Virus record (IMG/VR): IMGVR_UViG_3300014205_000176
Origin: a virus
Taxonomy: Duplodnaviria > Heunggongvirae > Uroviricota > Caudoviricetes
Length of the DNA stretch: 64,000 nt
Reading direction: 5' to 3' (one strand)
The notes under the pieces are model-generated. The model saw only the letters and a list, made by a program, of their open reading frames with translations. It ran no database searches and was not told the origin of the DNA. How positions within the stretch are numbered: the stretch's first letter is position 1; each line of letters opens with the position of its first letter. Below are positions 13,144 through 58,102 of the stretch, piece after piece. A program made the translations under genes and the position numbers.

Positions 13144-13186
13144 AAGCCACCTGCCTTGTGAGCAGGTGGCTTTTGGCGTTTAAGAG
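13144..13186 (+). promoter_or_regulatory. hairpin + TGGCGTTTAAGAG cassette 1
   Basis: 11-bp stem (13144-13172) followed by the motif at 13174-13186. Confidence 0.7.
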
Positions 13187-42100: not shown

Positions 42101-42493
42101 GATGAGGTTGAGCGAGAGATAGCACTGGATAGGTTGCAAGGAGTGCTTGCTCGTGAATCGGCGAAGGTCAATAACGTCCCGGAACCTGAGTTGACTCCAG
42201 GTCGCAAAGAGATGCTGCGGGATGCGCTGGAATACATGATCAGCGTATGCGATGGCGCTGAGACACGAGACCAAATGGGGTTCAATAAGCCGGACGCCTT
42301 TATGGCTCGATGGGTTGGAATGTGCCTACGAGAAGAAGACGAGGTTTCATTTAGGGTTTTGGAAAGGATCCTGGTGAGGTATCGCCGGCAACTCAAGGGT
42401 AGGTTTGAAGAGATTTGGAAACCAGCAAACGACTTTTGTAAACGACCAAACACTATTGGTTCAACACATGTTTGGGTAGACGGAGGTAAGTAA
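39125..42493 (+). CDS. SNF2-family (SMARCAL1/HARP-like) helicase with intein
   Basis: LADDMGLGK|T, ICPASLKYNW, DEFH, LSGTPLMN, VFSAH, GGVGFTLT, QAEDRLVRIG; N-terminal Zn finger and HARP-like region. Confidence 0.92.
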   Translation: MIVNKYAKKCQCCGRPVGVGKGWAYNNGNGWFTTCASSACHRHLGLEVPQSVTANANVRKLTEDGKVYMAYDRDAVPLLRAMPGASFNPENLPKDQVYWQVSIKPADLPRVVEIADQLKLEVHESLRALVEAGTAESREAVARATAISVNGKTLFGFQTDGVKALALHDRFFLADDMGLGKAQPVSEPVLTPKGWVPIGTLKVGDFVIGSNGRPTRVDGVFPQGVKDIFEIVLSDDARTRCCEDHLWAVQTPNDRVRNPGRIRVLSLKDLNALGLKDRNENHKFFIPMVRPVEFEETDLPMHPYLLGALIANGGLCATTITHAGDDEQRGAFKEYLPVGIYLSQSDDYTYRLSYLGPENQDTNPITQVLDNLCLKGLQSQDRFVPEEYMLASVEQRLSLLQGLLDNDGTISKDGMCIEYNTTSPVLASQVCSLVRSLGGIALMSSRIPLFTHNGEKKAGLPDFRIRIKLPSGMVPFRIPRKVERFIPPTKYPSTHAITDIFPAGQEDCVCIRVEAKDHLYVTRDYILTHNTVQAIVALPDNERVLVICPASLKYNWRDEIQMWRPSYRVTICSGKEETVAKTLAEGKKTKAIPFKIPEPGEIVICNYDILPNYLAPKKDSGKVSKKGKPILVANLTPEQEQALSETNVIGDEFHLVKNYKTARAQKVGQVTRISKRVWALSGTPLMNNPLDLFGVLSAGNINVFGSWDNFLRLFNGYKNQWGGYEFGMPLPEVPERMQRVMLRRLKTEVLKDLPPKVYQDIEVDDGTLTKTLNTFLGKVTGKKIDDDFDYEAELDIEELPDFKEFSEIRAMLARSRIPAMLEMVESYEDSGTPLVVFSAHKEPIEALQDRAGWRIITGDTDPETRRNFVKEFQDGLLKGIALTIKTGGVGFTLTRATNALFVDLDWTPSWNIQAEDRLVRIGATGSHVLIMRMRSNHPLDRHIQKLLKHKIALAYLALEASIKFKPPPPRLPGVAVIQETDDEMMARIQVAGDEVEREIALDRLQGVLARESAKVNNVPEPELTPGRKEMLRDALEYMISVCDGAETRDQMGFNKPDAFMARWVGMCLREEDEVSFRVLERILVRYRRQLKGRFEEIWKPANDFCKRPNTIGSTHVWVDGGK
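39668..40714 (+). mobile_element. class-3 intein with LAGLIDADG endonuclease (349 aa)
   Basis: Starts AQPVSEPVLTPKGW (Ala1) and ends ILTHN|T; WCT signature (HLW, VCI, THN); LLGALIANG and LLQGLLDNDG blocks. Confidence 0.9.
42427..42467. repeat. 41-bp perfect inverted repeat, right copy
   Basis: AAACGACTTTTGTAAACGACCAAACACTATTGGTTCAACAC, inside the helicase 3' end. Confidence 0.95.
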
Positions 42494-42837: not shown

Positions 42838-42880
42838 GAGACACCCTTCCAGTCACGCTCCTCCGACTCAGGTTGGTGAG

Positions 42881-42911
42881 AAGGGCTGCGGAAACGCAGC
42901 CCTTTTCTTTT
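42881..42911 (+). terminator. intrinsic terminator
   Basis: AAGGGCTGCG-GAAA-CGCAGCCCTT followed by TTCTTTT. Confidence 0.85.
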
Positions 42912-43168
42912 GTCTTGACAGTTTGGAAAATGCAGCCAAGGCTGTTTCGATAGAGGAATGTATGAGAGGAATGTATGAGAGAGAAGCAAGAACTTACCGT
43001 AACGCCCGTACCAGTCGAAAGCACGCTAGTAATTTGGGAGGAGAATCCAGAAAGAATTCGGTTTTCCCTCATAGGGGCCCTGTTATTTGATGGGGTTTTG
43101 ATTACTCGGGTTTGTCAAACTGGATTTTTATTGTAACAATTTACCAACGCACTCAGAAAGATTCTCAC

Positions 43169-44110
43169 ATGGCATCAAGATCAGTCGGACGAGTAGTTCT
43201 CAGTTTCGGGATGGCTCAAATTGCCGTCAAACTCTACAACGCCACGGGCTCAGAAGCCGTGAGCTTCAACATGATCAGTCCCAAACGCAATCGGGTTGGT
43301 CAACGCCTGTTCGAAAAGTTGCCAGGGTCCACAGAGGACACTGTGATTTGGGGGGAGGAGATCAAGGATCGGAGCAAATTGCTGAAGGGTTACGAATACG
43401 CCAAGGATCAGTTCGTCTACTTCACCGACGAAGAAGTGGCGAACATGCAAGCCGGCAAGAAAGACTCTCTGAATATTGCCGAATTCGTTCCTGTCAGCGA
43501 AATCGATCCGCTGCACATCGAGAAGACGTACTATACAGCGCCTGACAAGGGCATGGACAAGGGGTACCGATTCTTGTACGAACTTCTCAAAGCTCACAAT
43601 CGCGCCGCCATCGGGATTTACGTAGCACGTGGCAAGGAACATCTCGTTGCAATCCAGGCGTTCCAACACGGCCTCGTCCTGTACCAGTTGTTCTACAACA
43701 CGGAGGTTCGGGCATTCGACAATAAGTGTGCGAACATTCCGGTCTCGCCAGTTGAGTTGGCAATGGGCAAGGTGCTGATGGATACGCTGTTCAAGTCGAC
43801 CTTCGATTCTTCCAAGTACTCAGACAAGTTCATCGATAAAGTGAATAAGGCAGTGGCAGTCAAGCTAGCGGATCCGATGGCTACAATCACAGAGGTTGCG
43901 GTTCCGGTATCAACTGGTGGCATGGCTGACACGCTTCGAGCATCGCTGATTTCGATGGGTGTGCCGGAAGACCAAATCGATGCGATGATTGCCAAGGCGA
44001 TGGGCGATATACCAGCAGTACCGAGTGGACCAGCTGCAGCTGAACCTCTGGTGCTCACTGCACCTGCAGCAAAGTCTGCACGTAAGCAGCGGGCCAAGCA
44101 AGCTAGCTAG
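43169..44110 (+). CDS. ku: prokaryotic Ku end-joining protein
   Basis: SFGMAQIAVKLYNAT, LLKGYEY..DQFVYFTDEE, FVPVSEIDP...KTYY..P, LYQLFY..EVR, FDSSKYSDKF. Confidence 0.9.
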   Translation: MASRSVGRVVLSFGMAQIAVKLYNATGSEAVSFNMISPKRNRVGQRLFEKLPGSTEDTVIWGEEIKDRSKLLKGYEYAKDQFVYFTDEEVANMQAGKKDSLNIAEFVPVSEIDPLHIEKTYYTAPDKGMDKGYRFLYELLKAHNRAAIGIYVARGKEHLVAIQAFQHGLVLYQLFYNTEVRAFDNKCANIPVSPVELAMGKVLMDTLFKSTFDSSKYSDKFIDKVNKAVAVKLADPMATITEVAVPVSTGGMADTLRASLISMGVPEDQIDAMIAKAMGDIPAVPSGPAAAEPLVLTAPAAKSARKQRAKQAS

Positions 44111-44117
44111 GGTTGTG

Positions 44118-44145
44118 GTTGAGGGCTCGAAAACGAGCCCTCAAC
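44118..44145 (+). terminator. 12-bp hairpin after ku
   Basis: GTTGAGGGCTCG-AAAA-CGAGCCCTCAAC; no U-tract. Confidence 0.55.
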
Positions 44146-44233
44146 GACCTGAGTAAGTCCTGCCGATGTAAAATAACTGACCTTCAATCGCGCGTTGTCA
44201 GGATTTATTCTGGTCGTTACTGTTGAGATAACT

Positions 44234-44494
44234 ATGTCAGACCCAATATACACTTTGAAAGTGGGAGATATCCTCGTTGCAGTAGATGGAAGCAAGTATG
44301 GTGTTATAGTTTTGGACGTTACTAAATATACCAAAACCGAGGATGTTATTGTTCGTCCGTTTGACTCTCATTATGTTGAGAAAACAACGGATTTGATGGA
44401 TGTTTTTAGGCTCATCTACAGATTCCGATTGGTAGGGGACAAAATTCCAGAATGGGTACCACATGAAGCGAAGATTAACCATCGAGCTACTTGA
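44234..44494 (+). CDS. hypothetical protein
   Basis: ATG after GAGA. Confidence 0.65.
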   Translation: MSDPIYTLKVGDILVAVDGSKYGVIVLDVTKYTKTEDVIVRPFDSHYVEKTTDLMDVFRLIYRFRLVGDKIPEWVPHEAKINHRAT

Positions 44495-44682
44495 TAGAAT
44501 GATAGTAATCGCCCAAAAGGATCCTGATAAGAATGAAGCCGAATGGAACTTTTTTCATGGGGTTCTCTGGGGCGAAGAAAAAAATGATCCAGGCATCATA
44601 TTTGACTTGCTCAAGATGGCAAGGCGAATATTGGTATGGCGAAGCCAAGCTACAGCTACTTTAACAAAGCTACAAAAGGCAA

Positions 44683-45204
44683 GTGTCTGTGAAAATAAAT
44701 GATATTATCAATGGGGCCTCTGTGAAAGTAAATGATGTTATCGATGGGGAATACAAAACCTACATCAAAATAAGAACTGGTACGGTTTATCAAAGCATTG
44801 GGCCTGGTTCAAACATCATTAGCTATTTGGAAAAAGATGCTAGGATATGGGTAGGTTCGGTATCTGCTGAAGTTACCCGGGCCGCTCAGACTCTGGTGGG
44901 TATTTGGGAAACATCCACAGAGTTACGAAAGTTACGAGAGGCTCTTCCGGTAGTAGAAGATAGCGATAGTGATAACTGTCCTTCCTGTGGGCATTCATCA
45001 GTCACGCTAAGTGCCGTTAAATATACGTTTGAATATGGCCAGGATGATCGCATCGTGATGCTAACGGCAGTCGTTCCTGTATTCACGTGTGGTCGCAAAG
45101 ATTGTAAGTTGAGTTGGTTGAATGAGTGTGGCCAAGCCTTGATAGAATATGCCATTACTCAGTATTTGGAATCTCAAGAATCCGAAGTTACCAGAGTCAC
45201 CTAA
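44683..45204 (+). CDS. hypothetical protein with C-terminal Zn ribbon
   Basis: CPSCG...VPVFTC...C. Confidence 0.65.
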   Translation: MSVKINDIINGASVKVNDVIDGEYKTYIKIRTGTVYQSIGPGSNIISYLEKDARIWVGSVSAEVTRAAQTLVGIWETSTELRKLREALPVVEDSDSDNCPSCGHSSVTLSAVKYTFEYGQDDRIVMLTAVVPVFTCGRKDCKLSWLNECGQALIEYAITQYLESQESEVTRVT

Positions 45205-45345
45205 ACTGATAGTTCCAACTGGTAGAACAATAATTGTTGCAGATGAGCAAAACAAAAAGTTCAAGGTCATCAAAGGTCCAGCGATCATAGATGACTGCGG
45301 TCTGGAGATCATAGATGACTGTTTCTGCCATCCGCCGAGCGCACA

Positions 45346-45771
45346 ATGAAAATACTAATACAAGTCAATACAATTGATGGAGAACTCGAAACAGACATTC
45401 AATATGCCGTCGTTGAAGTGAATCCCGAGATGCAGCAATACCTAACTCAGCGGCTGGCGTTGTTCAACGCTTCCAAGCAATTTGCAACTGATCTATCAGA
45501 CATGCGGTTCTGGGGTTGTGCTTTCATCACATTCCACAGCAACATCGACCTCGATACGTTGCTAGGTGAAGATGAGCAGCACGTGTTCGATGAGCAAGGC
45601 TACTGGGCAGTGGTTGATGACTTCGCGAACGATGAGGAAGCATCTGAATGGGAGTTCGAACAAGTGGTGCTCGATGGTGATGGCTGGTACGTCACGGCGA
45701 ATGAAAAGGATACTGGGGTCGAGATTAAGACTCGGGAGATACCATATGACCTGTCCCAATTGTCAGCATAG
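45346..45771 (+). CDS. acidic hypothetical protein
   Basis: 141 aa. Confidence 0.7.
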   Translation: MKILIQVNTIDGELETDIQYAVVEVNPEMQQYLTQRLALFNASKQFATDLSDMRFWGCAFITFHSNIDLDTLLGEDEQHVFDEQGYWAVVDDFANDEEASEWEFEQVVLDGDGWYVTANEKDTGVEIKTREIPYDLSQLSA

Positions 45772-46435
45772 CAACATTGAAGGTGCACAGTTTTGTGCGG
45801 TTTGCGGAACAACACTTAAGGAAACTACAATGACCGAAGAGATTAAGGACAACCTGGAAGAAGTTACCAATGAGCTGGCGGAGGCATTGGCGGCTATTCA
45901 AATCGAAGGGTCCAGGCATAAAAGGGAAGCGCAGAGCTACGTTATCCTGCAGAAGTTTGGAACCGATTGCAACATCGAAGCTCGCTACGATGTGCGGTCA
46001 ATCTCTGAAGTAATTACCGATAACTACGGTAACGAGTTCGTTCCGATGGACTTACATGTGATGGTAACCTATCCATCACATGGTGGAGATGAGGTAGAGT
46101 TGGTTTATGATCGCACTCGGTTCTTAAAAAAGTGTTGCATAGAGGCCTTGAAACTTAGAAACGAATTCACACCGAAACCGGTCTTCTGCCTACTACGTTC
46201 GGCAGCGCAAAAGCGACAGCGCGAACATGAGAAGAGTGCCGAGGTGGTTCGCTTGACCATCGTCATCAACTGCAAGGGTATGCGGATTGGTGCTTCGAAA
46301 AGGTTTTGCGACAGGCACTTCTCTGACCAATTGGTACCCGGCATTTACGATATCAGCATTGACAAGAGGCGCTACACCGCAGACGTCAGCGATAGCAAGG
46401 TTGTTACGGTAGTTCGAAGGCCATTGGAGTCCTGA
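45746..46435 (+). CDS. Zn-ribbon-containing hypothetical protein
   Basis: MTCPNCQHSNIEGAQFCAVCG at the N-terminus. Confidence 0.7.
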   Translation: MTCPNCQHSNIEGAQFCAVCGTTLKETTMTEEIKDNLEEVTNELAEALAAIQIEGSRHKREAQSYVILQKFGTDCNIEARYDVRSISEVITDNYGNEFVPMDLHVMVTYPSHGGDEVELVYDRTRFLKKCCIEALKLRNEFTPKPVFCLLRSAAQKRQREHEKSAEVVRLTIVINCKGMRIGASKRFCDRHFSDQLVPGIYDISIDKRRYTADVSDSKVVTVVRRPLES

Positions 46436-46465
46436 GATGGTAGCCGGCGTTGATGAGATACCAAA

Positions 46466-46813
46466 ATGACCAAGCTGGCAAGGATCCCCACGCCAGAAGA
46501 TTTGTGGGGTGACTGCGAAGTAACTGGTTGGGACGAGCGACACACGTCCTTATGGAAACTTTGGCTACGAGGGATTGCTGCCATCATCGTATTTGCTGAG
46601 CAAAGTGTGATTGACCGGGTTGAGGAGGTAGTTAGATTAACCACGGCAAAAGCGAAGGCTGGAGATCTGACGGCTGAGGAGGCGGTATGGCTGGTGAGCC
46701 CGCTAGTCCTGATATCCTCGAAGGAATGGGACACAATAAATGCTATAGCAAGGGAGCAAGGCCAGATGGTAGGGAATTTTTTCCTATCAGATGAGTTCAC
46801 TAGCAATAATTAG
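46466..46813 (+). CDS. hypothetical protein
   Basis: 115 aa. Confidence 0.65.
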   Translation: MTKLARIPTPEDLWGDCEVTGWDERHTSLWKLWLRGIAAIIVFAEQSVIDRVEEVVRLTTAKAKAGDLTAEEAVWLVSPLVLISSKEWDTINAIAREQGQMVGNFFLSDEFTSNN

Positions 46814-46848
46814 TCATGTATTCATCAAGGTAACACTTAGAGGAATAT

Positions 46849-47463
46849 ATGACCAGAGAGACAGCATCAATTCAAAACTTCCTTATTTCAGCTGAACAAT
46901 CCATTCCTAATTTGGATGGACACAAAATCCGAGTGGCTGAACGTCGAATTCTCTGGTCGAAATTAGCACAGCAAGCGCCTGCTTCGGCAGGCGCTCAACC
47001 TCCTCGAACGTATGAGGAGTGGGAAAAACAACAGAAGTACAAGACACCAATTAGTAATCAGCAGCTGATGGATCAACAGGCATGGCAGCAAGCAAACCCA
47101 GAAGATGAATTGGGTAAGTTGCTGCGTCCACAGGGACCTCGGCCACCACAGCAGGGAGTTGCTCATGCGCCTACGCAGCAAGTAAGACGCCCAGCTCCAA
47201 AGCCAAAGCCGGTAGCACCGGCCGCTAATCCGGTAGTCACACCAGTACCGAAATTTGACCTACGGCAGACAATGGATAGTCCAACTGGAATTCTGCCACC
47301 GCAAACGTACACACCAGGTCCCGGGGATGTAAACTACGAAGACGATGAAAAGTCTTTGGGGTATACTCCAGGGCCTAACGATCCGAACTATACCGGAGCA
47401 AGCAAGAGCATTTCTGGCCTGCTCAAGATTGCGGACTACCTCAGCAAGAAGCGGACATCCTAA
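46849..47463 (+). CDS. Gln/Pro-rich hypothetical protein
   Basis: GAGGA RBS; low-complexity middle region. Confidence 0.75.
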   Translation: MTRETASIQNFLISAEQSIPNLDGHKIRVAERRILWSKLAQQAPASAGAQPPRTYEEWEKQQKYKTPISNQQLMDQQAWQQANPEDELGKLLRPQGPRPPQQGVAHAPTQQVRRPAPKPKPVAPAANPVVTPVPKFDLRQTMDSPTGILPPQTYTPGPGDVNYEDDEKSLGYTPGPNDPNYTGASKSISGLLKIADYLSKKRTS

Positions 47464-47476
47464 GAAAGAATAGAAA

Positions 47477-48340
47477 ATGTTATTGTGGACAAATGATATA
47501 CACCTGAACTTCTTGAAGCAAGATGACGGGGCGTTACGATTTGCTCAATATCTAATGGAAGAAAATCCGACGGCGGATGGATTGATAATCGCTGGAGATA
47601 TTTCTGATGGCAATCTTCTTGAGACTCATTTAACTCAGTTAGCTCAAGGGTTTCCTAAGCCAATATACCTAACCACTGGCAATCATGATTACTACCACAG
47701 TTCATTTGCCAAGATAGATGAATTAGTTACTGGTCTTACCAAGAAGTTTGATAATTTACATTGGCTCAATCAAGGCAATCATACTTACGAAGGCATCAGC
47801 ATCGTAGGTGTAGGTGGGTGGTATGATTCTCGTCAAGGAAATTGTAGGACTCGGGTTGAGCTTTCTGACTTCACGGCGATTGAAGACCTGTGGGGTGGAC
47901 TCAACTGTCGAGATCTGATGATTGACTTGGTACGAAAGCGAGCGGCCAAGGAAGCTGAGCGGCTCGACGAATTACTTTTTCAAGAAATGGTCGACGTTGA
48001 TGAAGATGTCGTTTTGGTAGCAACACATATCTCGCCGTATCCTGAGTCTTGCTGGCATAAAGGCAAACAGAGTGATCGCGAATGGTTGCCATGGTTCTGC
48101 AGTCACGTTACCGGAGAGGTCCTTGACAAATATGCCGAGAGCTTTCCTGGGAAGAAATTCGTAGTATTAGTAGGGCATGGTCATTCTCCTGGTATTTATG
48201 AAAGGCGTGATAATTTGATTGTGTATACTGGCGGCGCTATATATGGCTATCCAGATGTGGCAGGCACGATTGATGTCGTGTGTGGAAAAATTGTTTGTTA
48301 TAATTCTTTTGGTAAGAAAGTTGAAAGGACATTTCCATAA
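47477..48340 (+). CDS. calcineurin-like metallophosphoesterase
   Basis: NDIH, AGDISD, GNHDYY, THISP, GHGH. Confidence 0.9.
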   Translation: MLLWTNDIHLNFLKQDDGALRFAQYLMEENPTADGLIIAGDISDGNLLETHLTQLAQGFPKPIYLTTGNHDYYHSSFAKIDELVTGLTKKFDNLHWLNQGNHTYEGISIVGVGGWYDSRQGNCRTRVELSDFTAIEDLWGGLNCRDLMIDLVRKRAAKEAERLDELLFQEMVDVDEDVVLVATHISPYPESCWHKGKQSDREWLPWFCSHVTGEVLDKYAESFPGKKFVVLVGHGHSPGIYERRDNLIVYTGGAIYGYPDVAGTIDVVCGKIVCYNSFGKKVERTFP

Positions 48341-49219
48341 TGGGGAAAATATCGCAGTAATGACGGGGCGTTACGATTTGCTCAATGTCTAATGGAAGAA
48401 AATCCGACCGTGGACCTGAGCGGGGTTCCGGTAAGCAGTCATATCGAAAGTCTACAACAGAAAGAGGTCCCTAGTGGCAACTACAATCACTCTCAGCGCG
48501 GAATCAAAATTTGGATACAGAGGGCAATACATCGCTCGATTGCGAGGACGGGCGGCAAAGTTCGAGTTCGACCGTGATTTCATCGGAAACAAGTATGGTA
48601 AGCGGCTCGATTGCACTACCGTAGAGACCGACGAAACGGGTCTCTATGAAACTTGCGACGTCGGAAAGCACGGCAAAGACAAGTCGTACTACCTCGTTTT
48701 GCCGTGGAATGATGGCATCGTGCGTTTGGTGTCGGACCATGAGGACGCCTTGGCAATTGCTAAGCGCATGAGCGCTGGCGAGTGCATCGCAGACATCGTT
48801 GCGGTCGAACGTGGCGATGTCGTCATGGTGACGACCTACCCGCGGATTTGCGGCGCTTGCGGCGCAACGTGCGACGGGTGGACTTGCGCGTGTGGCTCGA
48901 CAGACGTTCATCAGCAGACGGTCCAGACCGCGAAACTCAAGGAAGACGGAAGCGAAGTCCACTCACTCGCCTACGTCATTCGCGGCAAATGCGAAGCGAA
49001 AAAGGCGATTGCAGCGGCTACGATCGATGGTGCAGCCCTGGCTATCGCCAATGTGCTTGTGGGGTTGCCGGCAGCGCAGCAGAAACAGGCCTTGGCGGCC
49101 GCAAAAGCTCGACTATTCCCAAAGGCCGAACCCCAACATGAAATTGTGAGCGAAGAATGAAACTTCGAGCCAATGGCACCGCGCGGTAAGTGAGGCAATC
49201 ATGGGGAAAATATCGCAGT
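48340..49219 (+). mobile_element. inserted gene cassette flanked by 19-bp direct repeats
   Basis: ATGGGGAAAATATCGCAGT at 48340-48358 and 49201-49219; encloses a 49-bp copy of 47523-47571 and a GC-rich ORF. Confidence 0.7.
48474..49160 (+). CDS. hypothetical protein with Zn ribbon (GC-rich)
   Basis: AAAGAGG RBS, GTG start; CGACG...CACG. Confidence 0.75.
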   Translation: MATTITLSAESKFGYRGQYIARLRGRAAKFEFDRDFIGNKYGKRLDCTTVETDETGLYETCDVGKHGKDKSYYLVLPWNDGIVRLVSDHEDALAIAKRMSAGECIADIVAVERGDVVMVTTYPRICGACGATCDGWTCACGSTDVHQQTVQTAKLKEDGSEVHSLAYVIRGKCEAKKAIAAATIDGAALAIANVLVGLPAAQQKQALAAAKARLFPKAEPQHEIVSEE

Positions 49220-49407
49220 TCTTACAGGCAGTAAAGGCAGGTCTGGTTCAAGAAATTCCACCTGAGTATCAAGCTTGTGAATCTTGTCGGCGGCCGAATT
49301 GCGATTCTGCAACGGCGGCAATGTGTGAACAACGGATTCTTGGAGAGAGGCAAGAGTCTCAGCGAAGGGTAGAATTGGTAGACGGAAAGGATAAGATTAT
49401 TGACTGA
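49201..49407 (+). CDS. small Cys-containing hypothetical protein
   Basis: ACESCRRPNC. Confidence 0.7.
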   Translation: MGKISQFLQAVKAGLVQEIPPEYQACESCRRPNCDSATAAMCEQRILGERQESQRRVELVDGKDKIID

Positions 49408-50164
49408 TTTTCTATTAGCAAACCGATGGGATAGAATATTGGATCCTACAGGGTGGTGGGTCTCTATTAAACTTGATGGTCACCGTGCTCATTGGGATGG
49501 CAAGCATTTTCGTAGTCGTGGCACAGATGGAAACTTCGGGCGTGTTATAGAGGCACCGGAATGGTTCATCAAAGGACTTCCTTATGAAGTGCTGGATGGT
49601 GAGTTGTATGCTGGGCGCGGTGAGATTGGAAAGGTAACTTCGGCAGTCAGTGGTAAGCGCGAACTTGATTGGAAAGCACTTACCTATTCAGTTTACGACG
49701 CCCCCGATTACCTGCAAGGATTTGAGCTACGTATTGCATATGCAAAGATGATCTTGAACCGAGCGGTTAACGCAAAGGTGATCGATTTTTGGGTATGCGA
49801 AAGTAAAGAGCAACTACTCGTACAGCTTGACAAGATTGTAGCTGAGGGTGGCGAAGGTTTGATGCTTCGCAAGCCTAACTCACGCTATGAGAAGAAGCGA
49901 AGCAACACACTGCTCAAGGTGAAGAAGCGATTCGACGCCGAGGCGGTAGTGACAGGACATATTGAGGGAACGCGCCCTGGACTTTGTGGTGCTCTGCAAG
50001 TGATGAACAAAGCAGGGCTGCAATTCAAGGTAGCGTCTGGAATGACCGAGGCAATGGCACACAATCCGCCGCCGATTGGAACGGTCATAACGTATGAATG
50101 GGAACTGCTGACTAAGGAAGGAATTCCGCGGCCGGCTATATTTGTAAGAATTCGGCAGGGTTAA
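49400..50164 (+). CDS. minimal ATP-dependent DNA ligase
   Basis: Motif I SIKLDGHRA, LDGELY, EGLMLRK, KRSNTLLKVK, C-terminal OB fold. Confidence 0.92.
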   Translation: MTDFLLANRWDRILDPTGWWVSIKLDGHRAHWDGKHFRSRGTDGNFGRVIEAPEWFIKGLPYEVLDGELYAGRGEIGKVTSAVSGKRELDWKALTYSVYDAPDYLQGFELRIAYAKMILNRAVNAKVIDFWVCESKEQLLVQLDKIVAEGGEGLMLRKPNSRYEKKRSNTLLKVKKRFDAEAVVTGHIEGTRPGLCGALQVMNKAGLQFKVASGMTEAMAHNPPPIGTVITYEWELLTKEGIPRPAIFVRIRQG

Positions 50165-50376
50165 TATGGAATTCGACGCACTCGTATTCAATCTCTTTGG
50201 TAATAAGACGATAGCTAAAATGATGGAACGCGATGGACTGCCTCACAATCGTTTGGTCAAGATGACAGCAGAGCGATTGTTTGAGTTGTCCAGGTTATAC
50301 GATGTGACGGTACGTATTCATACGACGACGCACATCTTCCTGGCACTACAAGCCACCTACCTACCGGGAGACTACA

Positions 50377-50895
50377 GTGAATAAGGGCGAAACTAAACTA
50401 CTTGATACATTCAAGCCGTTCATCAATGCCGCACAGGCTTTCGTTGATGAACATATTGTAGGCAATACTACAATGACGGTTCCAGATATTACTGCTGGGT
50501 TCATGGCCATCAACCAGTCACTTATTGGTGGAACAATCACACCGGTCGAGTTCGACAAGGGCTTTCGCCTAGCGATTCGTGAGAAGCTCATCACCGGTCT
50601 AGAGGTGGCTCAAGGCAAGGGCAAAGGTTACAAGAGAGAGGGAGTTGTCCTTCCGCGATCGGTAACCATCAGTCCGAAAGATTGGGATACGATACGTTAC
50701 CGGCTTCATCTCACATCTTCCGATGACTTGCCTGAAGTACTGGCCGCACTAGAGGCGGTTGCTCCAATAATCGAAGCTGCAATCGTTGGAGTTTCGGCAT
50801 TGAAGAGAGCTGGGATGCCACGATGTCTCTGCCCTGGTCCTGCCGGTCGTCATCATGAGACATGGTGTCCTTCCTACAAGTGTGTTGTTGAATAA
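50377..50895 (+). CDS. hypothetical protein
   Basis: 172 aa. Confidence 0.7.
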   Translation: MNKGETKLLDTFKPFINAAQAFVDEHIVGNTTMTVPDITAGFMAINQSLIGGTITPVEFDKGFRLAIREKLITGLEVAQGKGKGYKREGVVLPRSVTISPKDWDTIRYRLHLTSSDDLPEVLAALEAVAPIIEAAIVGVSALKRAGMPRCLCPGPAGRHHETWCPSYKCVVE

Positions 50896-50957
50896 TCGGC
50901 TAGCCGGCACAATCCAGCCATCCGATTTGTATCGCTAATCATCAGTCTTAATTAGCA

Positions 50958-50985
50958 TTGACAAATCTTCTGTTCCGCAGATAAT
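50958..50985 (+). promoter_or_regulatory. possible sigma70-type promoter
   Basis: TTGACA-16 bp-GATAAT upstream of the FtsK-like gene. Confidence 0.5.
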
Positions 50986-51001
50986 GATTGGAATAAGTGC
51001 C

Positions 51002-52060
51002 ATGTCTATCCAAGCCGAAATGAATAATGTATTGAATGAACTTGGCATTGATGGAGAATGCATCCGTGCAGAAGCCCACCGCCATCTAGCCTACTACGAC
51101 ATCAAGCTGGCTTGCCGACCATCAGCGCTCGGCAAGCTACAGCGCAGTGCCATGGCCATTGCATTAGCGATCAAGTCACAGACTGTCCCTCTAATGCGGC
51201 TCGTGCCCGAGAAAGGAATTGTGCGGTTGCAGGTAGCACTCAGCAAAGCTCAGCCGATTCCGTTCACTAATCTTCTCAAAGGCGAACAGATCCCGGACCA
51301 TATGGTGTTCCCGATGCTTCTGGGAGAGAGTGATGAGGGCAGTAAGTTGTGGATGGATATGAATAACAATCCACATCTACTGATTGCTGGCAGCACTGGG
51401 TCCGGCAAGTCAACTCTGCTTCATGCGCTGATTGCGAATGGTTTGATTCTTCATGCCAAGAACGTTCGCAACGTACATATCTACCTCAATGACCCAAAGA
51501 AAACTGAGTTTCAAGAATACACCAGTGACCTTAGCGACACCATCAAAGAGGTTGCCTCTACCTATAGCGATACGTTGAGTCAATTGAATTATCTTGCACA
51601 AGTAATGGAAGACCGGTACGCTTTGATGAGTGAGATTAAGATACGCAGCATTGAGGAGAACCCTCGGCGTCTACCTCTCATATTGTGTATTGTTGATGAG
51701 GTTGCCGACCTGATGCTACAGGACAGGGGCCGCAAGCTCGAAGCCTTGATTGTCCGGCTTGCGCAGAAGGGTCGCGCTGCTGGCATCTTCATGGTGTTAG
51801 CAACGCAGCGCCCGAGCGTCAAGGTTATCACTGGTGAAATCAAAGCCAATTTTCCAGGACGAATTGCTTGCAAGACCGCATCTAAAGTTGACAGCATGGT
51901 GATTCTAGACCGTGTTGGCGCAGAAACCTTGCTGGGCCGAGGCGATGCGGTTCTCAAGAATCAACAATTTGAAAGCTTGCGTTTCCAAGTAGCGTATACC
52001 ACCCCAACCATTAACAAACTAATTTTCAAAAGTTTCCTAGAGAGAAGGACACACTCATGA
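51002..52060 (+). CDS. FtsK/SpoIIIE-domain ATPase (no membrane domain)
   Basis: PHLLIAGSTGSGKS, DPKKTEF, IVDEVADLM, GRAAGIFMVLATQRPS, GAETLLGRGD. Confidence 0.9.
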   Translation: MSIQAEMNNVLNELGIDGECIRAEAHRHLAYYDIKLACRPSALGKLQRSAMAIALAIKSQTVPLMRLVPEKGIVRLQVALSKAQPIPFTNLLKGEQIPDHMVFPMLLGESDEGSKLWMDMNNNPHLLIAGSTGSGKSTLLHALIANGLILHAKNVRNVHIYLNDPKKTEFQEYTSDLSDTIKEVASTYSDTLSQLNYLAQVMEDRYALMSEIKIRSIEENPRRLPLILCIVDEVADLMLQDRGRKLEALIVRLAQKGRAAGIFMVLATQRPSVKVITGEIKANFPGRIACKTASKVDSMVILDRVGAETLLGRGDAVLKNQQFESLRFQVAYTTPTINKLIFKSFLERRTHS

Positions 52061-52674
52061 CCACAGTAAAGATCCATTACCTCGGAGAAATTGAAACCGC
52101 AACGGGTAAAGCGCACGATGGTTGGACTGGTGGATTTAAGTACAATGGCCACCGCGTAGATGTTCGGCGCGTTGAGCCAACTACCTTGGAGCTTGACATC
52201 TGTCCATTCACTAAACTGAGCGTGGGCTGGGGAGATCGTGGTGCATCAGCTGCCGATCTGGCTATCTGGGGTGAGACCGCCAATGGTAGTGTAGAATATT
52301 CGGCGAAGCATGGCCTGTGCATCAACGGTTACTTCGTGAAAGATTCTGTGTTGGAATTGCGAGCCATGGAGATTCACTCGGCAATAGTTGCGGCGGCTCA
52401 ATTGGCGGAAGAGACACGGCCGAATGTATCTGCCGTCTGCGCACAGTACCGCTCCATTTTGAAGTCAATTGCTGAAGAGCACGAGCGGCATTACGCGCAG
52501 TGGAAATCTAACCTTCCCAAGATTGCTCGTAAGTTCCGACGCAAGAAGGTGCTGGTTGGAGAGCAAACCGTTCCTGGGAAATGCTGCGTAAGGAGTGTTC
52601 GTGGGAACCTACTCGGTTACGTTGATATTTGGAACGGCAAGTGGCTTGAAACTGTGGAAAGAATTACAGCCTAA
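52057..52674 (+). CDS. hypothetical protein
   Basis: 205 aa, ATGA overlap. Confidence 0.7.
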   Translation: MTTVKIHYLGEIETATGKAHDGWTGGFKYNGHRVDVRRVEPTTLELDICPFTKLSVGWGDRGASAADLAIWGETANGSVEYSAKHGLCINGYFVKDSVLELRAMEIHSAIVAAAQLAEETRPNVSAVCAQYRSILKSIAEEHERHYAQWKSNLPKIARKFRRKKVLVGEQTVPGKCCVRSVRGNLLGYVDIWNGKWLETVERITA

Positions 52675-52890
52675 CGGAATCACCATGAACAAAACACTAG
52701 CACTCATCAAAGCTTCGCAGCTGAGGGAAGAGGCAGAGCTTGCTCTCTCGGCTATTGATTGGAAAGCCCTGCCACTGCTGTTCAAACAGCTAGGTAGTCA
52801 GCTAGCGGCTGTGCGTGGGCTTTGCTCCGAGATTGTTGGCCGGACCGGAGCGTGGCTGGCTCTCACTGATACGGTTGATAGGGTGATGTC

Positions 52891-53157
52891 ATGATTCACT
52901 GGAGCATACGCAACGTACAGATTCGTTCTCGAAAATTGAATGAACAGCTTGTGCAGAAGTTGCAAGAAGCTCACGTCGTATTCGTTCAGATGACGGAAAT
53001 CCAAGAGAAAGTACGGCGTGGAGAGTTGGCCGCTGAGAAAGCGAAAGCATCCTTGGAGCAGGCGGAGGCGTTTCATGCGGCGGCGATGAATGCCTGCTCA
53101 CAACTACTGGTTGACAGAGTGGCTCTATTCGACCCGTTCATAAAGGTCGAGCCATGA
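52891..53157 (+). CDS. hypothetical protein
   Basis: Packed ORF. Confidence 0.6.
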   Translation: MIHWSIRNVQIRSRKLNEQLVQKLQEAHVVFVQMTEIQEKVRRGELAAEKAKASLEQAEAFHAAAMNACSQLLVDRVALFDPFIKVEP

Positions 53158-53423
53158 TCACTTCGGTCAAAGAGCTACACACCACAATTGAACGCGCCGA
53201 CTACCAATTCTACAATTACTTGATTTGCAAGGTACGAACTGGTGGATCAATTCGGTACGATCTCTATCGAGTTTGGTTGAGCAATCGCAGCGACAGAACT
53301 CTGCTCAAACGCCTTGGATGTGCGCTGCCCCTGGGTCACTGCCGAAGATTGATTCGTGAGCAAGAACCTAATGGAACTGTGGTTGTTTCTCACCGAGCCT
53401 CGCCACAAAGGATTTCAAGATGA
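53154..53423 (+). CDS. hypothetical protein
   Basis: ATGA overlaps on both sides. Confidence 0.65.
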   Translation: MITSVKELHTTIERADYQFYNYLICKVRTGGSIRYDLYRVWLSNRSDRTLLKRLGCALPLGHCRRLIREQEPNGTVVVSHRASPQRISR

Positions 53424-53950
53424 CACGCTATCTTACTATCGAACAAGATATCACCACAATGAAGGTTGACTGCATCGTCAATGCGGCCAACAACCGAATG
53501 CTAGGTGGCGGCGGAGTTGATGGATCAATTCATCGTGCTGCCGGTACAAACCTGGTAGAGGCCTGCTCAATCATCCCCGAAGTATCCAAGGGAGTTCGGT
53601 GCCCTACTGGCCATGTGCGAATCACTCCAGCGTTCAAGCTGCCATGCAAGTTCGTGATCCATACCGCAGGCCCCATATGGAAAGATGGAACGCACAACGA
53701 AGCTGAGTTTCTTGCTTCGTGTTATCGGCGGTCATTGCAGTTGGCGGCGCTGCATGGAAAGTCGGTAGCGATACCGGCAATCAGTACGGGTATCTTCCAG
53801 TTCCCGATTGAGCAAGCTTGTCACATTGCGGTGCGTGAAGTGGAAGCGTTCATGCAATGCGACTCGGACCTTGAGGATATCTACTTGGTGACATTCATGT
53901 CCGATGAAGTCTCGGAGTGCTTTGCGGAGATGGGAGTACAACATGGCTGA
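53420..53950 (+). CDS. MacroD-type macrodomain (ADP-ribosyl hydrolase / O-acetyl-ADPr deacetylase)
   Basis: IVNAANNRMLGGGGVDGSIHRAAG, VIHTAGP, AIPAISTGIFQFP. Confidence 0.92.
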   Translation: MTRYLTIEQDITTMKVDCIVNAANNRMLGGGGVDGSIHRAAGTNLVEACSIIPEVSKGVRCPTGHVRITPAFKLPCKFVIHTAGPIWKDGTHNEAEFLASCYRRSLQLAALHGKSVAIPAISTGIFQFPIEQACHIAVREVEAFMQCDSDLEDIYLVTFMSDEVSECFAEMGVQHG

Positions 53951-54242
53951 CGACAAAGATAAGGGCTTCATTGTAATGGGTCCTGAGTTGCCAAATGGCG
54001 GGCGCGCTGCCATTCATGTTGACAAGGAAGGGGTTCACCACGGCGAGATGTTCCGCGAAGGCGAGGCTCCCGAATGTGCAGAGGGAGAACTCACCAGGAT
54101 CAGGACCGAACAAATTGCCGGGCCAATCTATCAAGTCACCGAAGAAGAGCCGATTGGAAAGCCTTTGATGGTAAACTCTTTGGATTATCGAAATAATTGG
54201 AATAACATCTTTGGTAAGAAACAAGACGTTGGAGAAGCATAA
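53943..54242 (+). CDS. hypothetical protein
   Basis: GGAG RBS before ATG at 53943. Confidence 0.7.
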   Translation: MADDKDKGFIVMGPELPNGGRAAIHVDKEGVHHGEMFREGEAPECAEGELTRIRTEQIAGPIYQVTEEEPIGKPLMVNSLDYRNNWNNIFGKKQDVGEA

Positions 54243-54736
54243 TGTTAGAAATACAACTTCGAAAAATCGAGAACGGTCGCGAATACCACCTGACTGGTGC
54301 TCACATCGAGTCGCTCCCGCAAATGTTTGGTATACAGCTCGCCAACACAAAATACGCTTTGGTACACGCAGAGCCTGAGCTGGCGGTGCTCTACGAGTTT
54401 CGCGGGCTGATGTTGCGCGGACACGGAGAGGCCTGGGGTACGTCGCTCACACTTTATGGACCAGTTGATCCGCGAATCAACTCGCAGATCGATCCCGGCG
54501 GTAGCCGGCCAAACATGCCGGCGACGATCGTGTGGCACGACGAGATCTGGGATCGCGATGCGATAAACCGCCTCGGCACGAAAGGCGCGATATGTAGTGT
54601 GCCAAATGATGAACGAATCGAGGAAGCGCGTAAACAGCTATTTGCGCGGGCCGAACAATATTCGAGGACTGGTGGTTGGCCGCACTGGTTCGACAGGACC
54701 GAGCTTGAGTTAGCGAATAACGATAACGATGAATAG
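54242..54736 (+). CDS. hypothetical protein (GC-rich)
   Basis: TAATG overlap; C/G-ending codons. Confidence 0.7.
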   Translation: MLEIQLRKIENGREYHLTGAHIESLPQMFGIQLANTKYALVHAEPELAVLYEFRGLMLRGHGEAWGTSLTLYGPVDPRINSQIDPGGSRPNMPATIVWHDEIWDRDAINRLGTKGAICSVPNDERIEEARKQLFARAEQYSRTGGWPHWFDRTELELANNDNDE

Positions 54737-55132
54737 TTCCCAGGAAGAAAAACAATGCCGAAGTTCGACGGCTGCTGCGTGAAGCTAATAGTTCTAGAGC
54801 ATTGTCTTCACGGAATTGGGCAGAGCAAAATTTGAGATTGTCGCTGAGGCACTTGATCATCTGGTCTTGAAGAAACGCAAGAAGAACATTTGGAGCGCGC
54901 AGAACCTACTTGGGTAGTGAACTTTGTTATTGTATGGAGAGGCTTCTTGTGATAAGGTATTCTGGATTAGCGAAATGGTCTTTGGCTCAGTGACCGACAA
55001 CGGACCTGGGTTGTTGTGATCCTCGGATGTCTGGCGCATCTCGGGCTCATTCATTATGTCCTGAGGGGAATGGTTCATATGAAGCATATCACTTACATGC
55101 CGTGTAGTTGGGTCTCAATGGAGAAGTAATTA

Positions 55133-55393
55133 GTGACGCAGCGCAAACCCAACGACAGCTCGAAGCATCCAAGGATCGTAGGCCCCGATGATGAAGGACG
55201 GCTCTGCGTCAAGTATTCACGGAAGTTTTGGACGCTGATGGGTGCTTGGTGCAATTTCGAACTCAGTGCAGATCTCATCAGTCTGCGTCACTACCGACAC
55301 CTTTACACCGAAGGTAATCCCTGGAATCCAGTACATACCAAGGACTTCTGGGCTTGGTACCAAGAGAAGAACAATGGCAAAAGTAAAAGCTGA
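55133..55393 (+). CDS. hypothetical protein
   Basis: 86 aa. Confidence 0.55.
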   Translation: MTQRKPNDSSKHPRIVGPDDEGRLCVKYSRKFWTLMGAWCNFELSADLISLRHYRHLYTEGNPWNPVHTKDFWAWYQEKNNGKSKS

Positions 55394-55733
55394 ATCAACC
55401 GTATCTACCTCCATGCCAAACGAAGAAGCTGTCATCCCGGTCGTTGGAATGGGCGTCACTGGCTTGGGCTACACCGATCGCTACCCATATACGGTGATCG
55501 AAGTCATCGACGACAAAACCCTTCGCATCCAAGAGGACAAGGCCACTCGCACCGACACCAACGGCATGAGCGAGAGCCAATCATACGACTACGAAGCCGA
55601 CCCAAAGGGTAAGATCTTGACCATCGTCCTTCGGAAGAACGGCCAATGGCATGTGAAAATCCCGAAAGTCGTCCCCGAAGCTACTCGCTTCCAGGTGGGC
55701 GTCCGTCGCAAGTATCACGACTACAGCTTCTGA
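55374..55733 (+). CDS. conserved phage hypothetical protein
   Basis: VGMGVT..GYTDRYPYTVIEV...GVRRKYHDYSF. Confidence 0.8.
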   Translation: MAKVKAESTVSTSMPNEEAVIPVVGMGVTGLGYTDRYPYTVIEVIDDKTLRIQEDKATRTDTNGMSESQSYDYEADPKGKILTIVLRKNGQWHVKIPKVVPEATRFQVGVRRKYHDYSF

Positions 55734-55787
55734 AAAACTATCATTCCAAACTCTATCAGAATATAGCTGTGTTCAGAAAGAAAACAA

Positions 55788-57308
55788 ATGGTAAAAGTTA
55801 AAACTAATAAGCAGGCATCTTTTACTGATTATGAGGTTCCTGTTGGGTGGGTTGTCGAGCTTAATTTCTTTGACATGACTGGCGAAAAAGCTAAGACGTG
55901 CGGAACTTCAGCGAAGATGTATCACCTTGAGATCCAAGCATCGAAAGACGGCACACAATACCAGCTCTATTCGGAGTATGGCCCAACTGGAAAAGTTGCG
56001 GCTTGTGATTGGCGTTACTTTGGGGAAGATAAAAGTTCTGCAGAGGCCGAGTTCAATTCAATTAAGAAATCAAAGATTCGCAAAGGCTATGTTGAAATCG
56101 ATGTAGCTCAGCGCACCCTTGGTAGTGATGAGGCTAAGAAGCAAGTCAAGGCTGTTACACTAAAGAATGCCGAAGCACTTCCAACTGCGCCGAAGTCTAC
56201 CATGACCACGGCACAGCAATCCATCGTATTCCTGTTCTTCAATGCACAGGATACTTGGGTTGCCCAGAACCTCAAATGTCCACTAGGTCAGTTGACAAAC
56301 AACCAGATTGATCTCGGCCGTGCTGCTTTGAATGAAGCCAAGGTAATCATCAATAAAAATTCAACCTTGTCGGATGAAGCTCTCAAAGAACTCACCAGGC
56401 TTACAAACAGCTTCTATGGGCTCATCCCTCACAACCTAGGGTCTGGTGCTCGTGGTCAGATGTTGGAGCTTCGCCTCGATACCCTAGACAAGATCGTAGC
56501 CAAGGAAACTGACTTGGATACGCTACTCGATGCCAAGCAGGTCAACGCAGTCCTCAAGGCAGACTCCACGCTGGATGACAAGTACCGTTCGCTCAACTGC
56601 GATTTCGGCGAGGTGGAGCAGGGCACCGACCTCTGGAAGTTCCTGGTCAGCTACTTCGCGGAATCCAAGGTCAATGGCCACGGCTACCACTCCAGCAGGG
56701 TCACCCGCATCTGGTCAATGAAGCGCAAGGACAGCAAGGAAGCTGCCTTCATGCGCAATATGGAAGGTATTGCGAAGCAGGCGGGTAGTCATACGTTCGC
56801 CGCTGACACTGCTGATATCAGTGGAGGCAAGAGCAAGCTGTGGACACCTGACCAGCGCCCCGATCTTAACAAAGAAGAAAGGGATTTGTACAAGCGGGCA
56901 AATGTTTGGCTTTGCTGGCACGGCACTCGTTCAGCAAACTTGGTAGGTATCACTCGCCGTGGTTTGCTAATTCGTCCTGCTGGTGCGGCGTATACTGGAA
57001 GTCTCTTTGGTGACGGAAAATATTTCGCGTGGCAATCGACGAAATCGCTAAATTACAGTGACGGTGGATATTGGACTGGTGGTGGTAAGGTAGATAAACG
57101 TTATATGTTCTTGCTAGATTGTGCATTCGGTAAGATGCACCATACGTGGAGTAACCAGTTTTTTAGCGGCCCACCCAAGGGACATCATAGCGTTTATGGT
57201 CGTTCGGGTCGTGGTAGTTCATTGCGTAACGATGAGATGATCACGTACGACAGGGACGACAAGGATAACCAAAGTGGCATTCGCTACCTATTTGAGATTA
57301 CTGGGTAA
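55788..57308 (+). CDS. PARP-like ADP-ribosyltransferase (WGR-like + regulatory helical + catalytic domains)
   Basis: EYGPTG (WGR-like); PLGQLTNNQI...LTNSFYGLIPH (PARP_reg); WHGTR, LFGDGKYFA, KSLNY, NDEMITYD (H-Y-E triad). Confidence 0.9.
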   Translation: MVKVKTNKQASFTDYEVPVGWVVELNFFDMTGEKAKTCGTSAKMYHLEIQASKDGTQYQLYSEYGPTGKVAACDWRYFGEDKSSAEAEFNSIKKSKIRKGYVEIDVAQRTLGSDEAKKQVKAVTLKNAEALPTAPKSTMTTAQQSIVFLFFNAQDTWVAQNLKCPLGQLTNNQIDLGRAALNEAKVIINKNSTLSDEALKELTRLTNSFYGLIPHNLGSGARGQMLELRLDTLDKIVAKETDLDTLLDAKQVNAVLKADSTLDDKYRSLNCDFGEVEQGTDLWKFLVSYFAESKVNGHGYHSSRVTRIWSMKRKDSKEAAFMRNMEGIAKQAGSHTFAADTADISGGKSKLWTPDQRPDLNKEERDLYKRANVWLCWHGTRSANLVGITRRGLLIRPAGAAYTGSLFGDGKYFAWQSTKSLNYSDGGYWTGGGKVDKRYMFLLDCAFGKMHHTWSNQFFSGPPKGHHSVYGRSGRGSSLRNDEMITYDRDDKDNQSGIRYLFEITG

Positions 57309-57310: not shown

Positions 57311-58102
57311 TCACTTCCACTTATAGCTCAGACTTTTGACCAGAGGCTTCCCGATGAGGTCGTAGAAGTCATTGGCCTGAGCTTGTGGAAGTTTGATTCG
57401 GTATCCTGTTCCATCTTTAATCTTCTCCAGTCCAAAACGCAATCCCCATTTGGCATTCATCTTTTCGCAGATCATTTCTTGATTGCTGGGAGAGAAACAT
57501 TGAGACGACAGCGTAATGACTATCTGTCTAGTTTTACGCTTTCGTTCGTACGAAGATCCATCGTCTAAGAACCAGTGATGCAGCATGGTTGGTGTTGGAG
57601 TCAACGTATCTGGGATTACTTTGATGCCATCCTTGTACCACTCGGAATATGTAGAGCTTAGTTTACTTGTGGCGAATGTAGAGAACTTAAAATAAGAGAA
57701 GCTTTTTCCATTCAGATACGATGTATCAGTTTTAATTCTACTCTTCCAATCTCCGGAGAACAACTTGCTAGCAACCAATGATACATGGTCGTAATACTTG
57801 TTCTTCTTGTAGAAGTATGGAACAGTTAGAATCGAATCATTCGATCTTCTAAGCCCAGCATCACCAAGCAAAGAACCAAAGACAATATCGGTGTCAAAGA
57901 CAAATGAATCATCATTTCCAAGGACTTGTGCTTCACTTCTGTTCCGTATAGGAATCCCGAAGTGTATCAATGCTTGTCTTACCGAGTTGCCTGTGGCGGC
58001 TCCAATTTCTTCAGAGATTTGCTTTGCCGATTTTCCAAGTGTAATATATTGGTTTGTCAGCCAATCAAGGTCGTTGAGTTGAGTGTACTTTCTAGATGTC
58101 AT
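57311..58102 (-). CDS. free-standing LAGLIDADG homing endonuclease with N-terminal HTH
   Basis: FGSLLGDAG and HWFLDDGS motifs; AT-rich and antisense to its neighbours. Confidence 0.85.
   Translation of the reverse strand: MTSRKYTQLNDLDWLTNQYITLGKSAKQISEEIGAATGNSVRQALIHFGIPIRNRSEAQVLGNDDSFVFDTDIVFGSLLGDAGLRRSNDSILTVPYFYKKNKYYDHVSLVASKLFSGDWKSRIKTDTSYLNGKSFSYFKFSTFATSKLSSTYSEWYKDGIKVIPDTLTPTPTMLHHWFLDDGSSYERKRKTRQIVITLSSQCFSPSNQEMICEKMNAKWGLRFGLEKIKDGTGYRIKLPQAQANDFYDLIGKPLVKSLSYKWK

Follow-up and report, generated by a model that had tools for sequence, protein, structure and literature searches.

We analyzed a 64,000-nucleotide stretch of viral DNA (IMG/VR record IMGVR_UViG_3300014205_000176; this whole 64-kb stretch is called the window below), in which a run of plus-strand genes between 39 and 58 kb includes those for a bacterial-type Ku, a minimal ATP-dependent DNA ligase, a metallophosphoesterase (MPE), a SNF2-family helicase, an FtsK-like ATPase, a MacroD-type macrodomain and a PARP, as identified by Pfam, NCBIfam, PHROG and PDB sequence searches. 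With SNF2 included, the cluster up to PARP spans about 18 kb on one strand. An initial annotation of this DNA had named these genes and read them as a eukaryote-like kit for sensing and joining DNA breaks. All of them were recovered by Pfam where it had placed them, each on the plus strand, and the catalytic motifs are intact in PARP, ligase, MPE and the macrodomain. Comparison with related phages, on balance, divides the genes into two separable sets, a conserved Ku-ligase-MPE module and a PARP-based set that is mobile relative to it.

The whole window is collinear with a 392-kb IMG/VR contig (G007), with identities of 93% for SNF2, 83% for the ligase, 78% for the macrodomain, 74% for the FtsK-like ATPase, 66% for Ku and 62% for MPE. 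Genes of G007 match portal (E 1e-46), baseplate wedge and tail sheath proteins, so that the window can be assigned to a huge tailed phage. The Pfam terminase model detected no terminase in G007, the GenBank phage collection contained no DNA nearly identical to the window, and a 40-mer taken from the window had no exact match in IMG/VR. Five related IMG/VR contigs were compared in full, with all the open reading frames (ORFs) of the window mapped onto them, while metagenome loci (L numbers below) were searched with tblastn run locally, and the ORFs around them were pooled and scanned with Pfam. Completeness was 91% for G007 and 78% for a second contig, G003. Two further contigs, G014 (L098-L106) and G002 (L045-L055), come from one sample and cover complementary parts of the G007 map (40-240 kb and 220-392 kb, respectively). 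Both match the G007 gene map at similar identity and probably make up a single genome of about 380 kb, so that the label "inverted terminal repeat, 100% complete" attached to G014 is doubtful.

Ku and its ligase and phosphoesterase partners

The Ku gene (43169..44110, plus strand) encodes a bacterial-type protein of 313 amino acids that scores above the cutoffs of both Pfam Ku (PF02735, E 6e-32, 111 bits versus 25) and the Ku_bact equivalog of NCBIfam (TIGR02772, 168.5 bits versus 150), and its basic C-terminal tail is conserved. Its start codon is the ATG at 43169, as the initial annotation gave it, and an upstream TTG was ruled out as the true start. Orthologues with 46 to 71% identity are found in G007, G014 and G003. 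A strong terminator-like hairpin (42878..42907, plus strand), with a 13-bp stem followed by a run of T, parts the helicase unit from Ku, and Ku may be a transcription unit of its own. This hairpin falls within a doubtful ORF (42713-43090) directly upstream of Ku, and another one, with an 11-bp stem and no T tract, directly follows the Ku stop codon (about 44117-44143). Scans for promoters and terminators found sites no more commonly than in shuffled sequence, and no 9-mer was common to at least three intergenic regions, so that transcription units are not definable from these signals.

The ligase gene (49400..50164, plus strand) encodes 254 amino acids with a nucleotidyltransferase and an OB domain only (Pfam DNA_ligase_A_M, E 9e-9, and DNA_ligase_OB_2, E 6e-17). 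This is the two-domain build of the Lig E class of ATP-dependent DNA ligases, and the protein passes the corresponding model (NF006592, 240.8 bits, cutoff of 200), matches the PDB entries 8u6x (E 1.4e-44), 4d05 and 6gdr over its full length (E 1e-44 to 3e-35) and keeps the KxDG of motif I (in SIKLDGHR) as well as motifs III to V. Bacterial Lig E enzymes have an N-terminal signal peptide and are periplasmic, whereas the phage ligase is linked to Ku and lacks the leader (its residues 1-3 align to residue 23 of the 8u6x chain and to position 30 of the profile), which indicates a cytoplasmic enzyme.

The conserved partner upstream of the ligase is a calcineurin-like MPE (47477..48340, plus strand; Pfam Metallophos, E 5e-12) that keeps every metal-binding motif in the alignment. 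It had no sequence match in the PDB, and its predicted fold is generic, with phosphatase-type matches (purple acid phosphatases, PptH) at TM scores of 0.52 to 0.60. Its identification as an Mre11/SbcD nuclease was rejected because Mre11 and SbcD reached only 0.41 to 0.46; the Pfam and PHROG scans of the ORFs neighboring MPE gave no Rad50/SbcC-type match. The MPE and ligase genes of the window are parted by an inserted ORF of 228 amino acids (48474..49160, plus strand), for which neither Pfam nor PHROG gave a match. This ORF has no counterpart in G007, in the G014 locus L086 or in locus L123, the latter having only a 68-amino-acid ORF at this place.

The genes for SNF2, MPE, ligase, Ku and the FtsK-like ATPase are kept together across four lineages of related huge phages. 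The MPE-ligase pairing was found in every member, and the two genes adjoin or overlap in G007, G014, G003 and L123. The gene order of G007 is that of the window, and L123 likewise has MPE, the small ORF, ligase and FtsK. In G014 (L086) the genes form a tight codirectional array, with SNF2 at 2672-4846, MPE at 7994-8854, the ligase at 8817-9563, overlapped by the MPE gene, Ku at 10001-10906 and FtsK at 12123-13169; an ORF of 94 amino acids lies between ligase and Ku, and one of 314 amino acids between Ku and FtsK. In G003 the order is SNF2, Ku and FtsK, with an adjacent MPE-ligase pair, all within 23 kb. The conservation of this block in four lineages makes a module for binding and sealing DNA ends plausible. 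Ku and a ligase are also paired, independently, in an unrelated phage of 179 kb (G017), where the gene of a Ku only 26% identical to that of the window overlaps an ATP-dependent ligase gene by 4 nucleotides. Next after the G017 pair (L090 11917-14259) come genes for a DndB-like protein and a recombinase of the MrpR type.

The block resembles the nonhomologous end joining (NHEJ) of bacteria by Ku and LigD in its Ku_bact-type protein, in an ATP-dependent ligase encoded in the same operon-like block and in the presence of an end-processing hydrolase. It differs in that the ligase has neither the primase-polymerase nor the phosphoesterase domain of LigD and falls far under the LigD models (27 versus 373.2 bits for TIGR02776 and 38.5 versus 227.75 bits for TIGR02779), while MPE has a calcineurin-like fold unrelated to that of the LigD phosphoesterase. 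Phage-encoded bacterial-type Ku is known from the mycobacteriophages Omega and Corndog, whose proteins are 27 to 29% identical to the window Ku over about 75% of its length and share with it a presumed role at phage DNA ends. In work attributed to Pitcher and colleagues (2006), the Ku of these phages reportedly uses host LigD for genome circularization. The window Ku, in contrast, travels with a minimal ligase and a phosphoesterase of the phage itself, so that host LigD should not be needed, and it belongs to a huge myovirus-like phage rather than to a 110-kb siphovirus (passages on cluster J and cluster O mycobacteriophages are found in PMC3706429 and PMC4351075). The Ku-ligase-MPE module is a variant on known end-joining systems, and the PARP described next is of a known kind.

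A chimeric and mobile PARP with its predicted erasers

The PARP gene (55788..57308, plus strand) encodes 506 amino acids with WGR, HD and ART domains, recognized by Pfam as WGR (E 4e-6, 27.4 bits, cutoff of 22), PARP_reg (E 2e-12, 48.1 bits, cutoff of 26.8) and PARP (E 4e-18, 66 bits, cutoff of 26.7). The catalytic triad H378, Y412 and E483 is invariant in the 12 sequences aligned. The domain order and the intact H-Y-E triad are those of clade 1 PARPs (PARP1 core, PARP2 and PARP3), which bears out the PARP1/2/3-like architecture proposed in the initial annotation. Compared with human PARP1, the phage protein lacks zinc fingers and BRCT and is a recombinant of two phage alleles (see below). The best PDB sequence matches were PARP1 and PARP2, and the predicted structure, in which the WGR domain is confident, best matched the DNA-break-bound WGR-HD-ART chains of PARP1 and PARP2 over the full length (E 2e-18). 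This architecture suggests activation by DNA breaks. PARP1 and PARP2 carry WGRVG at the WGR-motif site, where the window PARP reads YGPTG (Y-G-P), a departure from the signature by which activation is not assured. PARPs of bacteria and phages, as annotated in Herpetosiphon, Clostridioides difficile CD160, Xanthomonas phage XacN1 and Cellulophaga phages, appear in passages of PMC5966428, PMC4245714 and PMC7824862.

The PARPs of the window and G007 are just 45 to 47% identical, although the phages are closely related, and the window PARP is 63 to 67% identical to those of G001, G003 and G004. Sliding-window identity showed that its affinity switches near residue 120: nucleotides 55787-56173, coding for WGR, are native and similar to G007 and G002, and the remainder, coding for HD and ART, is similar to G004, G001 and G003. 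Trees calculated for the two parts placed WGR with G007 and G002 (support of 100/96) and HD-ART with G004 (99/99), inside the other clade (100/100). DNA homology to G007 ends at 56173 and restarts at 58142. The window PARP is a recombinant of a native WGR domain and an HD-ART part imported from the other PARP clade. The chimera is shared by the closest relative (L107), whose PARP is 89% identical in amino acids and 82% in nucleotides. It clearly illustrates how phages exchange alleles at the level of domains, here beside a homing endonuclease.

That endonuclease is a free-standing LAGLIDADG protein (57311..58102, minus strand; Pfam LAGLIDADG_2, E 1e-20) whose gene abuts the PARP stop codon. 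Homologues at the 3' end of PARP in L001, L056/L114, L116 and L119 suggest a homing site there. Co-conversion driven by the endonuclease would be a plausible origin of the chimera, but no more than a possibility, because L107 has the chimera without the endonuclease: the segment 57305-58140 that carries it is absent from L107, which has 214 unrelated bases in its place. In the corresponding position of G007 (64969-66549; L068 4969-6549, minus strand), the PARP gene overlaps a downstream gene of 526 amino acids that combines a DUF4379 treble-clef zinc finger with a CapR homology domain; in the window, the homing endonuclease replaces it.

The location of PARP varies among the relatives. Of the 13 related IMG/VR PARP loci, 8 have the gene in a nucleotide-metabolism block, alongside genes for a flavoprotein, an RNase T-type exonuclease and IMPDH/GMP reductase and several unknown ones; these 8 include members of both PARP subclades as well as the distant G012. 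In G007 the block persists at 237-248 kb but has no PARP in the usual place, and the single PARP of this contig is found at 66.5-68 kb, beside Ku, ligase, FtsK and MacroD, indicating that the gene was translocated next to the Ku module. The translocation happened once, before the window, L107, G007 and L123 diverged from one another, and only in this lineage of the clade are Ku and PARP neighbors; elsewhere they are 110 kb (G003) and 160 kb (G012) apart. G014 has the Ku module with a PARG 10 kb downstream and neither PARP nor MacroD. It was dropped as a PARP-free phage with a Ku module because its gene content complements that of G002, from the same sample, which has PARP; in the genome formed by the two, PARP would probably belong to the G002 part, within the nucleotide block. 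The PARP gene of these phages is mobile and only in some cases adjoins repair genes. Gene proximity is therefore not enough for claiming a eukaryote-like PARP-Ku pathway, for which biochemistry is required.

Among 50,697 GenBank phage records, 53 matched Ku and 16 matched PARP, with no record in both groups, so that their co-occurrence in the window is not trivial. The smaller Ku phages yielded no PARP. Around 27 distant metagenome PARP genes, no Ku was found among the 141 ORFs within about 2 kb, where no family dominates and NUDIX genes are near two of the PARPs. The PARP of Klebsiella phage 05F01 has a radical SAM enzyme and an anaerobic ribonucleotide reductase in its context.

Between FtsK and PARP, the window encodes a MacroD/YmdB-type macrodomain (53420..53950, plus strand; Pfam Macro, E 8e-42, 142 bits), the frame of which overlaps small ORFs on both sides. 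The motifs NAAN...GGGVDG and GIFQFP can be read from its translation, and the best PDB matches were E. coli YmdB (5cb3/1spv, E 1.5e-40), followed by MacroD1 and MacroD2 (E 4e-33 and 2e-32), making it a putative ADP-ribose hydrolase of the MacroD type. It is found beside the Ku-ligase-MPE module only in the window, G007 (78% identity) and L107 (74%), at the same position in each; G014 does not have it, and no match to the window MacroD was obtained in L123. A second predicted eraser, a bacterial-type PARG of 296 amino acids (PF10021, PARG_cat_microb), lies beyond the window, at about 67081-67971 of the genome. Its position was derived from a contig that encodes an identical R2K protein and carries PARG about 3.1 kb past the R2K gene, which puts it about 10 kb downstream of PARP. 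PARG is found at the matching position, after a radical SAM gene, in G014 and L107, and there is none in G007. YmdB/MacroD and bacterial-type PARG (T. curvata/D. radiodurans type) are the same kinds of enzymes, here phage-encoded and near PARP, and the set of erasers differs among relatives, G007 being without PARG and G014 without MacroD. Judged by predicted function, the genome carries a full set of ADP-ribose writer and erasers (PARP, MacroD and PARG).

End joining, ADP-ribosylation and competing readings

The two sets are neighbors within the accessory arm of this huge, myovirus-like phage. The comparison shows what the genes are, that their catalytic motifs are intact, that the Ku block is conserved and that PARP is mobile and chimeric; each biochemical step proposed here, like any cross talk between the sets, is what we infer. 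A Ku dimer would thread onto linear phage DNA ends, either at injection or after cuts by host nucleases, and shield them; MPE would clear blocking phosphate groups from the ends, and the minimal ligase would seal them once annealed, leading to circularization or repair without host LigD. The SNF2 and FtsK-like motors would belong to the same module, the task of which would be to bind, clean and seal phage DNA ends. The precedent for this reading is the mycobacteriophage Ku that is said to work with host LigD, with the phage here bringing its own ligase. The PARP-based set would be a self-contained system of reversible ADP-ribosylation, with PARP as a writer probably activated by DNA breaks through its WGR domain and MacroD and PARG as erasers. 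The ancestral home of PARP is the nucleotide-metabolism block, far from Ku, from where it was translocated beside the proposed end-joining module in one lineage, its catalytic half being swapped later by recombination with the allele of another phage. If Ku, the Lig E-type ligase and MPE do join ends, they would form a three-gene, host-independent end-joining system built unlike Ku-LigD. Such a system would bear on how huge phages circularize or survive nuclease attack and could be a compact tool.

Several observations weigh against keeping the two sets apart and favor the integrated kit of the initial annotation, in which PARP would sense breaks in phage DNA and ADP-ribosylate Ku, the ligase or the DNA ends to organize joining, MacroD and PARG would reset the system, and the whole would work as a eukaryote-like circuit. 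The genes share one strand within the 18 kb described above, with no strong terminator between Ku and PARP, and the arrangement recurs in G007, L107 and L123. PARP was translocated here and retained after the allele swap, and selection could have kept it beside two erasers through this replacement; in G014 and G007, as in the window, the Ku module also has PARG or MacroD close by. Ku and PARP are both present in every well-covered genome of the clade (the window, G007, G003, G012 and probably that formed by G014 and G002), so that the two could be functionally coupled even when far apart. In addition, a DNA ligase is directly beside PARP in three unrelated lineages, Cellulophaga phage phi17:2 (L097 5239-8285, Cellulophaga phage phi17:2_18), L150 (10001-13050) and L169 (10001-12238). 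The ligase gene follows PARP either at once or after a single small ORF, and the enzyme is ATP dependent in two of the three and NAD dependent in the other; the intervening ORF of 154 amino acids in the Cellulophaga phage had no Pfam match. This recurrent adjacency hints, if weakly, that PARP may be connected with the joining of DNA.

Nevertheless, we consider the integrated kit rather doubtful. The genomes with colocalized genes descend from a single translocation and count as one observation, and elsewhere PARP is 110 to 160 kb from Ku (G003 and G012) and, in most of the related loci, in the nucleotide block. The distant PARPs have no Ku within about 2 kb, the GenBank phages with one of the two genes lack the other, and the Y-G-P signature leaves break activation unassured. 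What stands from the initial proposal is the block of Ku, ligase, MPE, SNF2 and FtsK, conserved in four lineages; PARP and MacroD are not tied to Ku, and support for an integrated break-sensing kit does not reach past one lineage. Independent distribution among relatives, named in the initial annotation as the observation that would speak against the kit, was found in part for PARP and the macrodomain. Cross talk between the two sets is possible, the evidence for it going back to that single translocation event. A specific form of it, in which PARP was recruited to the end-joining module as a break sensor that ADP-ribosylates proteins or 5'-phosphorylated DNA ends so as to restrain or free the joining reaction, with MacroD and PARG resetting the marks, seems unlikely to us; if true, a bacterial virus would possess a full end-joining circuit under the control of PARP.

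The end-joining role of the conserved module can itself be questioned. Mu Gam is a relative of Ku that blocks exonucleases, and Lig E-class enzymes are nick sealers. The phage Ku could be a Gam-like cap against RecBCD-type exonucleases, the ligase a replicative nick sealer and MPE an enzyme acting on a small molecule, in which case the Ku-ligase link might reflect the coexpression of early DNA-metabolism genes instead of end joining. The Lig E-type enzyme is the sole DNA ligase detected in the near-complete G007 and in G003; it need not, therefore, be a dedicated repair ligase, and it probably also serves replication. In G012, Ku stands alone, as neither MPE nor a ligase is close to it and the ligase that this phage uses is NAD dependent and encoded at a distance of 28 kb, and the smaller Ku phages G016 and G018 are without an ATP-dependent ligase. 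The modeled fold of MPE is closer to phosphatases than to Mre11. All these points count against the module as an end-joining system. On the other side, the overlapping MPE-ligase-x-Ku operon of G014 and the Ku-ligase overlap of the unrelated G017 are the kind of repeated pairing that a shared pathway predicts, and the phage Ku scores as a full bacterial NHEJ Ku with a conserved C-terminal tail. We judge this Gam-like reading, without any end joining, improbable.

Least likely of all is that the PARP-based set serves host takeover or counterdefense and has nothing to do with DNA ends, with PARP modifying host proteins or draining NAD+ and the erasers stripping marks that host DarT-like or other ARTs put on phage DNA or proteins, or degrading signals derived from ADP-ribose: the usual PARP context of nucleotide or NAD-type metabolism (IMPDH/GMP reductase and the flavoprotein, or that of Klebsiella phage 05F01), the NUDIX genes near two distant PARPs and the G014 contig with PARG and no PARP all fit it, but the WGR-HD-ART fold matches DNA-break-bound PARP1 and PARP2, an autoinhibitory HD is typical of DNA-activated PARPs, and the PARG of G014 likely has its cognate PARP on G002. 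Phage PARPs and macrodomains are mentioned in passages of surveys on jumbo phages and on viral NAD/ADP-ribose systems, where the former are proposed to modify the host and the latter to degrade ADP-ribose signals (PMC7824862 and PMC9503650). Among the best 12 matching passages per search of these two sources, none connected PARP to Ku or to a ligase. A full-text literature search of limited coverage, which is not proof of absence, returned no paper on a phage operon of Ku, Lig E and phosphoesterase or on a phage PARP-Ku set.

Motor proteins and intein of the conserved block

The first gene of the conserved block encodes a SNF2-family helicase (39125..42493, plus strand; Pfam SNF2-rel_dom and Helicase_C), which had been annotated as SMARCAL1-like. 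The SNF2 assignment held. The SMARCAL1 label depends only on a HARP match below threshold (E 4.5e-4, 20.1 bits versus a 25-bit cutoff) at residues 65-110 of the G014 orthologue, and the PDB sequence matches of the helicase are generic SNF2 remodelers. An intein of about 348 amino acids (roughly 39668-40711, plus strand, residues 182-529) interrupts its P-loop, placed exactly in the Walker A loop between GLGK and TVQA, where the alignment to the intein-free G014 orthologue breaks. Residues 154-534 match intein-bearing PHROG families, and there is a weak match to LAGLIDADG_3. The intein is present in the window and G007, while the orthologues of G014 (724 amino acids) and G003 (751 amino acids) are short enough to be intein free, as confirmed by alignment for G014 only.

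The FtsK/SpoIIIE-family P-loop ATPase (50984..52060, plus strand; Pfam FtsK_SpoIIIE, E 4e-36; phrog_1358, E 3e-67) has 358 amino acids and consists of the motor domain only. Full FtsK translocases have membrane, motor and gamma domains, of which the phage protein shares just the motor, and its score against the full-length model NF007615 was 163 bits versus a cutoff of 1566. Orthologues with 52 to 79% identity are present in G003, G007, G014, L107 and L123.

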